A program made the translations under genes and the position numbers. The notes below the pieces were generated by a model. That model was given only the letters and a program-made list of their open reading frames with translations. It was not told the origin of the DNA and did no database searches. From the UHGV virus genome UHGV-0063792: a DNA stretch of 23,367 nucleotides; one strand, 5' to 3'. This document shows, in pieces, positions 13,391 to 18,154 of this stretch. Position 1 is the stretch's first letter. The number at the start of each line of letters is the position of its first letter. This DNA is from a virus.

Positions 13391-13395
13391 AAATT

Positions 13396-13413
13396 AAAGG
13401 CCCGAAGGCCTTT
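13396..13413 (-). terminator. Rho-independent terminator (UUCG tetraloop) after the 62-aa ORF
   Basis: Minus strand AAAGGCC-UUCG-GGCCUUU, perfect 7-bp stem, followed by AAUUUUAU. Confidence 0.5.
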
Positions 13414-13600
13414 AGTAATCTAGTGGTAAGAGAGTACGATATATTTCAAACTTTGGTCCTTTTTCATAGGCATCAAATGTTTCTGTAAATTTATTATAAG
13501 CGTATGCATCTACAAATTCGAGAATGACTTGTGATACAGAAGTAGAAACATCTCCACCTTCTTTTTGAGCAATGACAATTGTTTCTAAGTAAGCTTTCAT
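13412..13600 (-). CDS. Hypothetical small protein, 62 aa, between ligase and alt
   Basis: ORF with ATGA overlap onto the ligase stop; translationally coupled. Confidence 0.55.
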   Translation of the reverse strand: MKAYLETIVIAQKEGGDVSTSVSQVILEFVDAYAYNKFTETFDAYEKGPKFEIYRTLLPLDY

Positions 13601-15060
13601 AAACCAGTTACCTCATGAAAATCACCAAATACATCCTCGAATGTATTAGCTTTAGTTTTATCTTCACGTAAACGAATCGCAATCGGAAGAAATAATTTAA
13701 CGTAATCAGTGCGGCCATCAGATTTTAACCAACCGTTGCATTCGCACTCTAGAATTTTTCCAATATAATAATTTTGGTTTTCCATAATGCGAGTACGGTC
13801 AAGTTCATGCGATTTTACACCGGCTTTATCTTTTAAGCCTGAACCAGCATTTACCTTAATTTTTCCACACTCTGATTCAAGAATAAATCCACCCGCTTTA
13901 GTAGGGTCTTTACGGTGAGGATAAATTCCTACAATTTTTAAATCAACATCAATTACTTCTTTAAATTTATAGAGATTTTTTGAACGAGCATTTTCCCACA
14001 ATCCATCGGTATTTTTGAGAATAATACCTTCAAGACCTTGGTCAATATACTTTTTATAAATTACCTTAGCTTCATCTAGGTTATTTACTACCTGGTTTTC
14101 AATTAAAATTACTTTATCATAACCTGATGTCATTTGTTCTAGTTTAGAAAAACGTACATCATATTTCAAACGAAATGCAGGAAGACCGTATATTTCTACC
14201 AACGGGACATAATCCCAGACCTGAAACTTCATGCATTGAGCTTCTTTTTCAGAAATGGTTCCCTTTAAAGATTTATTGGCGATGCCATTAGATGCAGTAC
14301 GTGATTCAGCTACTTCGGCGAATTCTTTAGCTTTACTAATTTCAGGATAAGCATCAAAAAGAAAATCTAGGCCTTCTGGCTCCTTTTCAACTTGCTCATG
14401 GTATACCAATTCGCCATCAATTAACACACCTTCTGGATGAATCTGGCGAGCTTCTGCAGTCATTTTGATTAACTCTTCCTTAAGAAGATCTAATCCTAGA
14501 TATTCATTACCAGCTCGTGATAAAAGACGAACATCATCTAATTCATCACCTCTGACTTCAGCAAAACACCGAGCTCCATCAGCTTTTAACTGGGCAAAGG
14601 CTGGAAATTTGATATTCTTATTAATGCCTTTTTCATCATAAGAACTTGCAAGCATTTGAGGTTGTTCAGGAATTAAACCTGGCCAAACTTTGTTTGCAAT
14701 AGATACTGAAGCACCGCATTCAAGGTCTCGCATCATCACCCGACGCAAAACTTCAACATCATCTTTTTTACCGTCAGTAATATATCCAGTTAATTCCTCA
14801 ATTGCCGCATTTCCAGTCAATTTCCGAGTAGCTAACGTGAATTCAATGAAGTCAAGCATATCGGTAAGAGTCAACATTCCAAAACTCTGGGTAGCAATAC
14901 CCGGTTTAGGCCATTTCTTGATATAATACTGTAACCCACGAGAATAAGTCAGACGATATACTCGTTTAAGCAATTCATTATCTTTATTCTTTTCAAGAAT
15001 TGCTTGCTTCTGCTTAGTTGAACCAATAGATGCTATTTCGTTCAGAATTTTAAGAATCAT
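13597..15060 (-). CDS. 30: ATP-dependent DNA ligase (gp30), 487 aa
   Basis: 487-aa ORF with adenylation motif KxDG (AQLKADGARC) and N-terminus MILKILNEIASIGSTKQKQAILEKN, as T4 DNA ligase. Confidence 0.92.
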   Translation of the reverse strand: MILKILNEIASIGSTKQKQAILEKNKDNELLKRVYRLTYSRGLQYYIKKWPKPGIATQSFGMLTLTDMLDFIEFTLATRKLTGNAAIEELTGYITDGKKDDVEVLRRVMMRDLECGASVSIANKVWPGLIPEQPQMLASSYDEKGINKNIKFPAFAQLKADGARCFAEVRGDELDDVRLLSRAGNEYLGLDLLKEELIKMTAEARQIHPEGVLIDGELVYHEQVEKEPEGLDFLFDAYPEISKAKEFAEVAESRTASNGIANKSLKGTISEKEAQCMKFQVWDYVPLVEIYGLPAFRLKYDVRFSKLEQMTSGYDKVILIENQVVNNLDEAKVIYKKYIDQGLEGIILKNTDGLWENARSKNLYKFKEVIDVDLKIVGIYPHRKDPTKAGGFILESECGKIKVNAGSGLKDKAGVKSHELDRTRIMENQNYYIGKILECECNGWLKSDGRTDYVKLFLPIAIRLREDKTKANTFEDVFGDFHEVTGL

Positions 15061-15326
15061 TGTTCATCCTTTAGAGTTTGGTTTACAGCTCTATTATAAA
15101 TCAATTCATCATTAAGCTCAGTCAAAGACCTGTGGTACGTGGTTCTAACTTTATTTCCTTGCATCCAGTGCTTGACGTAAATGAAACCTTGCTCTACGCA
15201 TTTTTTAAAAATTCGTTCGTCTTTTTGAGCTCGGAATTCTGGATTGCATCTAAAAAATTGATTTACGTGACCATAATCACGTGTAGTATTACCTTCATTT
15301 TCATAAATAGTGTGAACAACAAACAT
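15057..15326 (-). CDS. Hypothetical protein, 89 aa (30.1-like position)
   Basis: ORF with ATGA overlap onto the ligase start and TAATG overlap with the upstream gene. Confidence 0.6.
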   Translation of the reverse strand: MFVVHTIYENEGNTTRDYGHVNQFFRCNPEFRAQKDERIFKKCVEQGFIYVKHWMQGNKVRTTYHRSLTELNDELIYNRAVNQTLKDEQ

Positions 15327-16162
15327 TAGAATGCTCCTTGGAAAATATTATCACCACAAGTAGGTCTATTATACAAATACTCTATACCACCGGGTTTAAT
15401 ATAGTTCCATGTCTGAAACGGATGCGTCTGATATGGATGATATGGATTATAAGGATTAAATCCAGGAGTTCTCCAGGTAGTGTTCCAACGAAAAGAATCA
15501 TTTTTAATCATCTTTTCAATTACATCTTTTATAGCTTTTTCACTATCAAAACTTTCTTTATTTTCCTTTGGTGAAAAAAGCTTATTCTCTACATCGTTCC
15601 ATGTATAAACTCGCTGTGCAGTTTTTGGAATACTGTCACGCTCTCCTCGAGCCATCCAATACACAGGAACACGTAATATTTCACTCGCATGATCGCAGTG
15701 GTGAGCGAGATCGTCAATATAACAAATTACATTATATTTCTCTTTTGCCTTTTTGAACAACTCTTCTTTTGAAGAATCATGACCACACATCATTACTTCT
15801 GAGAAGGCACCAGGAAAAAGAGCATTCAAATTAAATTGACGATTCAGCAAAGCGTCAATAGAATCACCCAATGCTGTAACAGCTACAAAATTATAATCTT
15901 CTTTTAATTTGTTAATTACACACAGAGCATCTTTATATGGAGACAAATAACGAATAAAATCTGATCGATTGTATTTTTCAATTAGCTTAACGCCAAGTTC
16001 TTCATCACAGTTAAAGAGTTTACCAGGAGAAATAAATTTCTCATCTTGGATCATTTTTAAAATATGTTCTAACGGAAGATTATATTTCTGAGCAAAATAA
16101 GGAAGGCCTGATTGCCAGCTTAAACATACTCCATCAATATCAGTTAAAATAGTAGGCTTCAT
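15326..16162 (-). CDS. HAD-superfamily hydrolase-like protein, 278 aa (30.2-like position)
   Basis: N-terminal ILTDIDGV (HAD motif I, DxDGx[TV]) and later YIDD acidic motif; Pro/Tyr-rich tail NPYNPYHPYQTHPFQTWNY. Confidence 0.6.
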   Translation of the reverse strand: MKPTILTDIDGVCLSWQSGLPYFAQKYNLPLEHILKMIQDEKFISPGKLFNCDEELGVKLIEKYNRSDFIRYLSPYKDALCVINKLKEDYNFVAVTALGDSIDALLNRQFNLNALFPGAFSEVMMCGHDSSKEELFKKAKEKYNVICYIDDLAHHCDHASEILRVPVYWMARGERDSIPKTAQRVYTWNDVENKLFSPKENKESFDSEKAIKDVIEKMIKNDSFRWNTTWRTPGFNPYNPYHPYQTHPFQTWNYIKPGGIEYLYNRPTCGDNIFQGAF

Positions 16163-16617
16163 AGAGAGTCTCTTAATAGGTTTAACACATCAATAAATTC
16201 AGCTTCGGTTAGTATTGTATCATCTTTTGTTAGACCACTAGCCATGCTGTGCTTCAAAACTTTTCCTTTCGAGGCTTGTAATGCATCACGAAAGCCCTTG
16301 TTTTGGATCGCTGCTTCAAAATATGCATTTGTGTATAATTCTTTCCACGCCGGGGAGTATCTTGAAAATGGAACTCCAAGCCAGAAGAGGGTCCCATGGT
16401 CCTGAGCTCTAGCATAAGACCTTCCAGCTTGTTGGGCGGCAAGCCCGGATAATCCAAATATACGACGTTGTTGTTCAACGTTTTTCACCTTACATCCTTG
16501 GAGGAATCCTTCGAGACCTCCGAATTGAATACCATCCATGACGAAAGGCCATTGGGCAAAATTACTTAATGCGCATGATGGCCATCTAAAATTACTTCTA
16601 ATCTCTAACTCAGACAT
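16159..16617 (-). CDS. NADAR / YbiA-like (DUF1768) domain protein, 152 aa (30.3-like position)
   Basis: Motif LSNFAQWPFVMDGIQFGGLEGFLQGCK resembles the NADAR core (SNF..P...DG......E.[FY]Q..K); start set at ATG 16617 because the track ORF 16623 start is a TTG. Confidence 0.6.
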   Translation of the reverse strand: MSELEIRSNFRWPSCALSNFAQWPFVMDGIQFGGLEGFLQGCKVKNVEQQRRIFGLSGLAAQQAGRSYARAQDHGTLFWLGVPFSRYSPAWKELYTNAYFEAAIQNKGFRDALQASKGKVLKHSMASGLTKDDTILTEAEFIDVLNLLRDSL

Positions 16618-16673
16618 TTTCAATGCTTATAATTTCAACATCAGCCCAATGACCATAGCAAGGAAGACGAAAT

Positions 16674-18124: not shown

Positions 18125-18154
18125 ATCATATCACAAAGGAACCATACTGTAAAC
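18125..18154 (-). promoter_or_regulatory. Candidate early promoter
   Basis: Minus strand GTTTAC, 18 nt, TATGAT; shares the GATATGATA motif and the GGAGAATAAAATG RBS with the promoter at 17729-17757. Confidence 0.3.

Follow-up and report, generated by a model that had tools for sequence, protein, structure and literature searches.

Do a NADAR gene, a gene for a HAD-like hydrolase and the DNA ligase gene, packed into one run on the minus strand of a T4-like phage genome, work together, or are they merely neighbours? The question is raised by a viral DNA segment of 23,367 nucleotides (UHGV-0063792; the whole segment is hereafter called the window). An earlier note, made from the sequence alone, had proposed that a NADAR protein of 152 amino acids (aa), a HAD-motif protein, an 89-aa protein and the ligase, lying next to alt, form a module for nucleic-acid damage reversal or counter-defence. 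The explanation that we favour, and that we hold to be very probable as a whole, is that the NADAR gene is T4 gene 30.3 (adfN), that gene 30.2 encodes a separate HAD-fold phosphatase, and that their shared early transcription unit (30.8 to alt.1) reflects the architecture of the T4 genome rather than a joint mechanism. The two genes at issue, and the two parts of the second, are located as follows.

16159-16617, minus strand: gene 30.3 (adfN), 152 aa, NADAR; the protein begins MSELEIRSNF
15326-16162, minus strand: gene 30.2, 278 aa, HAD-fold; N-terminus MKPTILTDIDGV, internal CYIDD, tail NPYNPYHPYQTHPFQTWNY
15563-16162, minus strand: gene 30.2 residues 1-200, HAD core with a helical C1-type cap, NT5C-like by fold
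15326-15562, minus strand: gene 30.2 residues 201-278 and stop codon, Pro/aromatic-rich C-terminal tail

The 1.7 kb around these genes is 98.9% identical in DNA sequence to Escherichia phage slur07 and is matched by 669 phage records. This identity places the window in a Tequatrovirus (T4-like) genome and identifies the two genes as T4 genes 30.3 and 30.2. Protein alignment with T4 gave 150 identities in 152 positions (98.7%) for gp30.3 and 274 in 278 for gp30.2, and both family matches are well above chance (gp30.3 to PF08010 at 5e-70; gp30.2 to phrog_420, a PHROG family without an assigned function, at 9e-94).

The proposal that the 152-aa protein is a NADAR was confirmed. It matched PF08010 with 234.1 bits (cut-off 36; E = 5e-70) across profile positions 1-138 of 138. 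Searches with the single sequences of both proteins against PDB sequences gave chance-level matches only, so profiles and structure prediction were needed; an NCBIfam search produced nothing useful. The canonical NADAR profile, PF08719, was matched by 20 of 46 gp30.3 homologues (best E = 1.5e-7) and not by the window protein alone, and the gp30.3 family profile matched Escherichia coli YbiA (PDB 2B3W, E = 0.0037) across the LSNF...EGF.Q..K core. An AlphaFold2 (AF2) model built on the family alignment had a predicted local distance difference test score (pLDDT) of 94.2 and a predicted template modelling score (pTM) of 0.89. The top three structures found with this model by Foldseek in the PDB were 2B3W (4.4e-5, query TM-score [TMq] 0.67), 8BAT and 8BAU, all of them NADARs (YbiA, the G. 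lovleyi protein and one from Phytophthora with bound ADP-ribose); beyond these three, the search returned no match with E < 1. Across the 46-homologue alignment E36 and H123 never vary and K43 is at least 90% conserved. The window protein carries each of these residues; it has the full 152 aa and, in the model, an intact C-terminal helix (residues 138-151). It differs from the T4 protein by two substitutions, R74H and I124M, the second of which restores the family-consensus Met beside H123. The profile searches, structure prediction and active-site comparison with YbiA and characterized NADARs that the earlier note had suggested as a check thus recovered the NADAR family, with the catalytic residues kept. 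We conclude that the window protein is a NADAR of the gp30.3/AdfN clade.

The T4 protein is its orthologue, with equal length and genomic position, the same E36 and K43, the His in the last strand and the C-terminal helix. A DarG1-type NADAR from Geobacter lovleyi (8BAT) and YbiA share with the window protein a common alpha+beta fold (Foldseek TMq 0.54-0.67) and the same LSNF...EGF.Q..K core motif, at a sequence identity of about 15%. The window protein, like AdfN, is an orphan without a cognate DarT, and it also lacks the N-terminal extension of DarT1-linked NADARs. The last-strand residue is His in the AdfN clade, Glu in YbiA and Asp in DarG1-type proteins; DarG1-type NADARs and YbiA are reported to share with the AdfN clade the hydrolysis of guanine-linked ADP-ribose (PMC11125620).

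The start of the gene can be read in two ways. The open reading frame (ORF) spans 16159-16623 on the minus strand; the ATG at 16617 gives 152 aa, and an in-frame TTG at 16623 would yield 154 aa. A 74-aa ORF lies inside adfN in another frame (16254-16478, minus strand) and matches the internal gene 30.3' (T4p206), which the T4 annotation describes as 'internal translation in a different reading frame'.

The function of this protein has been established in T4, where gp30.3 was renamed AdfN, for anti-DarT factor NADAR (Johannesman et al., Nat Commun 2025, PMC11825919). Without adfN, T4 and T2 no longer form plaques on DarTG1 hosts; this is the plaque assay of deletion mutants that the earlier note had called for. 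RB69, whose own copy has lost 15 residues by truncation, is rescued on DarTG1 by adfN expression; adfN alone in trans fully restored RB69 plaquing and fully complemented a T4-GT7 adfN deletion. E36A and K43A mutants are impaired, and purified AdfN strips ADP-ribose from DarT1-modified DNA (all PMC11825919). An independent study showed in vitro that guanine-linked ADP-ribose is hydrolysed, and it singled out the His of the last strand as specific to the clade (Toxins 2024, PMC11125620). AdfN(T4) did not protect uninfected E. coli from DarT1 (PMC11825919, PMC11125620) and protected non-T-even phages weakly, and an additional T-even factor was proposed for full activity (PMC11825919). The phenotype was seen again in a genome-wide T4 transposon screen on DarTG1 (HIDEN-SEQ), cited here and below for the rows examined, in which gene 30.3 had a log2 fold change (log2FC) of -7.25 with an adjusted p = 0 (10.1101/2025.11.20.689424, Data S6).

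The suggestion that the NADAR reverses DarT-type guanine ADP-ribosylation in a counter-defence role therefore agrees with published data on the T4 orthologue (PMC11825919, PMC11125620). By orthology, and with its catalytic residues intact, window gp30.3 would act as a guanine-ADP-ribose glycohydrolase that protects against DarTG1. AdfN would be made early in infection and would cleave the N-glycosidic bond joining ADP-ribose to guanine, a modification introduced into phage DNA by the host toxin DarT1; removal of ADP-ribose would then let phage replication proceed in DarTG1-carrying cells.

Gene 30.2 encodes an enzyme of a different kind. The HAD-like hydrolase that the earlier note had recognized from DIDGV...YIDD was borne out by four conserved motifs, a confident core model and HAD fold matches. 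The motifs are D8-x-D10-G (I), T96 (II), K132 (III) and D150-D151 (IV); when 41 homologues were aligned, D8, D10 and K132 did not vary at all, and conservation was at least 90% for T96, D150 and D151. Modelling with AF2 gave block-mean pLDDT values above 90 for residues 1-190 and of 84 for residues 191-200, and it placed a helical cap after motif I, with helices at residues 16-86. The Foldseek search of the PDB yielded 104 matches at E <= 1e-3; the HAD-superfamily fold is common to each of the top 50 listed. The best were mouse and human 5'(3')-deoxyribonucleotidases, with the cytosolic enzyme (cdN) 2jao at 2.3e-8. The bacterial deoxyribonucleotidase-like protein 3bwv was also among the top matches (target TM-score [TMt] 0.71), and cdN, the mitochondrial enzyme (mdN) and 3bwv all had E of about 1e-8 and probability 1.0. 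The single match of the gp30.2 family profile to PDB sequences was again 2JAO. Among viral proteins (BFVD), fold neighbours that do not belong to the family carry the annotation 5' nucleotidase.

At the level of curated families the window protein had no Pfam match at E <= 0.1 and no NCBIfam match. Nine of the 41 relatives matched PF00702 and eight matched NT5C (PF06941; best E = 1.2e-4), all below the curated cut-offs; a distant relative on a metagenomic contig (L156:8001-8591) reached 22.3 bits with NT5C against a cut-off of 24.8. Since no match exceeds the curated NT5C threshold, gp30.2 is filed as NT5C-like by fold and not as a member of that family. The 100 detectable homologues come essentially all from T4-like phages. 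A literature search on gp30.2 and 'gene 30.2' found no functional study, and a review of T4 relatives mentions neither 30.2 nor 30.3 (PMC2993671).

The enzymes cdN and mdN (NT5C; 2JAO, 2I7D, 1MH9) and 3BWV share with modelled gp30.2 a HAD Rossmann-like core and a helical cap, with a root-mean-square deviation of 4-4.5 A over about 205 columns and an identity of 14-18%; they also have the DxDGV-type motif I followed by an aromatic residue, with motifs II-IV in register. Unlike them, gp30.2 has an extra disordered tail of about 80 residues and belongs to a family confined to T4-like phages. On its motifs and predicted fold, we take gp30.2 to be a catalytically intact HAD-fold phosphatase, NT5C-like by fold. 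It would be an Mg2+-dependent phosphatase with a closed helical cap, an enzyme separate from AdfN. The motifs and fold suggest that D8 would carry an aspartyl-phosphate intermediate, that D10 would serve as general acid/base, that D150 and D151 would hold the Mg2+, and that the cap would enclose a small nucleotide-like substrate, which the enzyme would dephosphorylate. We infer that gp30.2 is a phosphomonoesterase and that this substrate is probably a nucleoside or deoxynucleoside monophosphate, acted on during phage DNA metabolism.

The Pro/Tyr-rich tail of gp30.2 had been singled out in the earlier note as unusual for an enzyme. Its composition is indeed unusual; the segment is also poorly conserved and is absent from about 40% of the family. 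AF2 predicts one helix in it (207-220) and disorder in the remainder, with pLDDT below 50 at residues 229-232, 244-260 and 269-278. In many of the 41 aligned homologues the tail is missing or cannot be aligned between lineages, and a long tail is missing from 40 of the 95 members of the family. It contains GGIEYLYNRPT, and the motif IEY[LWY]xx[RQ]P[TQ] recurs in 15 of 55 long-tailed family members. On the model and the alignment, the tail is a lineage-variable disordered appendage and not part of the enzyme; that it serves as a docking segment is possible and is speculation.

Are NADAR, HAD protein and ligase one module? The remaining genes of the proposed block, and the gene upstream of it, are listed here.

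15057-15326, minus strand: gene 30.1, 89 aa, DUF3045; PF11243 at 2.9e-64
13597-15060, minus strand: gene 30, ATP-dependent DNA ligase, 487 aa; PF01068 at 1.1e-32
13412-13600, minus strand: alt.1, 62 aa
11506-13362, minus strand: alt, with ADP-ribosyltransferase domain PF03496
16674-16805, minus strand: gene 30.4, shortened, 43 aa

By coordinate the minus-strand order is alt, alt.1, 30, 30.1, 30.2, 30.3 and the shortened 30.4, followed by 30.5 to 30.8. Identity to the T4 proteins is 88 of 89 residues for gp30.1 and 483 of 487 (99.2%) for the ligase. The ORF coordinates and junction sequences agree with the chain of 152-aa, HAD, 89-aa and ligase genes that had been described as joined by ATGA and TAATG overlaps: genes 30.3 and 30.2 share an ATGA at 16159-16162, genes 30.2 and 30.1 meet in TAATG at 15324-15328, and genes 30.1 and 30 share an ATGA at 15057-15060. 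Of the 31 minus-strand junctions annotated for this region in slur07, about 19 have overlapping stop and start codons. As most junctions there overlap, the ATGA and TAATG junctions do not single out these genes, and overlaps were rejected as the mark of a special module.

Conservation of the arrangement was assessed by profile searches over 158 related IMG/VR loci, 78 seeded with gp30.2 and 80 with the NADAR. In 74 of the 78 loci seeded with gp30.2, a ligase gene is found no more than 2 kb downstream of the gp30.2 homologue. A NADAR gene is present in 35 of these loci and absent from 43, while gp30.2 occurs in 19 of the 80 NADAR-seeded loci and is missing within 8 kb in the other 61. In several T4-like genomes the two genes are on one contig about 55 kb apart. 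Where 30.2 is not adjacent to the NADAR gene (loci L017 and L026), another conserved partner was sought, and the neighbours were small ORFs with no informative Pfam domains. Conservation of gp30.2 thus tracks the ligase and DNA-metabolism genes, not the NADAR.

Data from T4 itself lead in the same direction. In the DarTG1 screen, insertions in 30.2 (71 TA sites) were neutral (log2FC -0.12, p = 0.61, adjusted p = 1; 10.1101/2025.11.20.689424, Data S6), as were those in 30.1 and alt (log2FC -0.01 for each), and the same study found 30.1, 30.2 and 30.3 non-essential on K-12 (10.1101/2025.11.20.689424). A single functional module of NADAR, HAD protein, 89-aa protein, ligase and alt, for damage reversal or counter-defence, is therefore not supported: co-occurrence is limited to 19 of 80 and 35 of 78 loci, 30.2, 30.1 and alt are neutral in the rows examined, and adfN alone is sufficient. 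Across Straboviridae gp30.2 is kept with the ligase and with replication and recombination genes regardless of an adjacent NADAR, and on the T4 screen it is dispensable for DarTG1 resistance. Its persistence beside such genes suggests a housekeeping role on DNA precursors or DNA metabolites.

Three divergent T4-like metagenomic contigs display other gene orders around the HAD gene: ligase, two small ORFs, HAD and UvsY (L156, 5928-9333); dCMP deaminase, further genes, HAD and UvsX (L149, 5863-9709); and PhoH, further genes, a PD-(D/E)XK nuclease, HAD, patatin and gp59 (L153, 4471-10594).

Several points weigh against the separation of the two genes or against parts of our account. The label 'nucleotidase' rests on fold likeness and on weak matches of family members. 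About 45% of gp30.2 loci have an adjoining NADAR gene, a share above that expected if genes were placed at random in a genome of 170 kb. Synteny is strong among T4-like phages, and adjacency to the ligase may represent inherited gene order rather than functional coupling. The transposon data, in the rows examined, come from one screen in T4 and not in the window phage, and a contribution of 30.2 could be hidden by redundancy. Finally, AdfN(T4) has been reported to need an additional T-even factor for full activity (PMC11825919).

A more specific version of the phosphatase reading gives gp30.2 a dedicated task, in phage DNA metabolism or in the conflict with the host, as a ligase-linked nucleotide phosphatase that might clear a particular (d)NMP or a nucleotide-derived immune signal, with the fast-evolving tail tethering it to the replication or repair machinery. 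It was kept near the ligase or replication and recombination genes in 74 of 78 loci across very divergent Straboviridae; in the few screened conditions covered by the rows examined it had no phenotype (10.1101/2025.11.20.689424). We regard so specific a job as possible but rather unlikely.

Proximity to the ligase also fits an end-healing role, in which gp30.2 would be a DNA/RNA 3'-phosphatase, similar to the HAD domain of PNKP, that readies nicks for the product of the ligase gene, two positions downstream. The adjacency in 74 of 78 loci is kept even where the order is inverted (L156-L158), gp30.2 weakly matches phrog_415 (E = 0.0029), a PHROG family labelled 'polynucleotide kinase', and phage kinase-phosphatases are found among its distant viral fold matches. 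The HAD domain of T4 PseT is likewise a phage HAD phosphatase from the same early region, and PseT is functionally tied to a ligase. PseT is, however, a two-domain kinase-phosphatase acting on nucleic-acid ends, whereas gp30.2 has no kinase domain and its active site is capped in the model. Capped HAD enzymes generally act on small molecules, and macromolecule-directed members, such as the phosphatase domain of T4 Pnkp, are cap-less. The helical C1-type cap after motif I would thus point to a small-molecule substrate; moreover, the best fold and sequence matches of gp30.2 are nucleotidases and not PNKP, and the phage already encodes PseT. End healing is in our judgement an unlikely function of gp30.2.

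Partnership with AdfN is a little less likely again. Here gp30.2 would process the released ADP-ribose or ribose-5-phosphate, or would itself be the T-even factor, and 30.3-30.2-30.1-30 would form a de-ADP-ribosylation and repair cassette. A loose parallel exists in the bacterial metabolism of riboflavin intermediates, where both HAD phosphatases and YbiA-type NADARs act. The ATGA overlap would couple translation of 30.3 and 30.2, a NADAR gene is adjacent or near in 35 of 78 gp30.2 loci, and the reported need of AdfN(T4) for another T-even protein (PMC11825919) leaves a place for such a partner. Against this, insertions in 30.3 were lost on DarTG1 and those in 30.2 were not depleted in the rows examined, 61 of 80 NADAR loci lack gp30.2 and 43 of 78 gp30.2 loci lack a NADAR, the genes lie about 55 kb apart in some T4-like phages, and overlaps are generic. 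As far as DarTG1 is concerned, a partnership is already largely refuted, and gp30.2 as the additional potentiator of AdfN was rejected, on the neutrality of 30.2 insertions in those rows. It is very improbable that gp30.2 is mainly a tail-driven adaptor or regulator that docks on a protein of the host or the phage and in which phosphatase chemistry is of minor importance or has been lost: the tail's unusual composition, disorder, fast evolution and short lineage-specific C-terminal motifs would suit such a role, but the catalytic HAD residues are strongly conserved across 41 diverse homologues, and the long tail is missing in about 40% of the family, so that the conserved function resides in the enzyme core.

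That a phage NADAR reverses DarT-type ADP-ribosylation of DNA is already known, the protein having been discovered, named AdfN and characterized in T4; the window adds one more near-identical allele. What is gained concerns gp30.2, one of about 100 T4 genes without a function, which is narrowed here to a HAD phosphatase with intact catalytic motifs, NT5C-like by fold, whose conservation follows the ligase and the DNA-metabolism genes rather than the NADAR. Nucleotides thereby become the substrates towards which biochemical screening is directed. In addition, gp30.2 is no longer the obvious candidate for the T-even factor of AdfN, sparing a plausible but probably unproductive experiment.

One feature of the window may bear on expression of AdfN. 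Protein and DNA alignments revealed an 11-nucleotide deletion in gene 30.4 at about 16686 relative to T4 and slur07, by which AGGGACCCTAA is lost. The frame is shifted, leaving 43 aa in place of the 68 aa in T4. The 8-nucleotide overlap of 30.4 with the adfN start, present in T4 and slur07, is thereby removed in the window phage, and an untranslated gap of 56 nucleotides remains. The undeleted form is found in 379 of 392 phage records, and a deletion of similar size occurs only in vB_EcoM_G2540. Either a sequencing error or a genuine lesion, one that reduces translation of AdfN, could account for the deletion. In the T4 screen on DarTG1, insertions in 30.4 showed moderate depletion (log2FC -1.79, adjusted p = 0.014), and those in 30.5 reached -3.0, which was not significant (10.1101/2025.11.20.689424); apart from 30.3, gene 30.4 was the sole significant gene among the rows examined. 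Because 30.4 lies directly upstream of adfN with an 8-nucleotide overlap, the simplest reading is that its depletion is probably a polar or translational-coupling effect on adfN. Alternatively, 30.4 may be a real helper of AdfN, and its natural frameshift makes the window phage usable for testing that idea.

A consensus scan for transcription signals on the minus strand found the following sites.

18204-18183, minus strand: GC-rich terminator-like hairpin with a T-run
18153-18125, minus strand: promoter-like site TTTACA-17-TATGAT with an upstream TG, directly after the hairpin
13395-13414, minus strand: terminator-like hairpin at the end of alt.1, dividing the ligase unit from alt

The scan found no more promoter-like sites than shuffled sequence gives. 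The positions are suggestive of a ten-gene unit from 30.8 to alt.1, bracketed by the site at 18125-18153 and the hairpin at 13395-13414, with alt beyond it.

The block had also been described as next to alt and near pseT. The first part needs qualifying, as alt.1 (62 aa) and the hairpin at 13395-13414 intervene between the ligase block and alt. The second holds loosely: from the slur07 annotation and the coordinate offsets between the window and slur07, pseT lies about 6 kb from the block and is cut at the end of the window. A frameshift in pseT, suspected from the ORF list, was rejected, the gene being simply cut there.

The window has a single alt paralogue, compared with a tandem pair in slur07. 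With 618 aa, its alt ORF is shorter than the slur07 orthologue (685 aa), to which it is 98.9% identical over 617 aa. The alt frame is shifted by a 2-nucleotide insertion in a TATA run at about 11510, and the conserved last ~67 residues are encoded in another frame.

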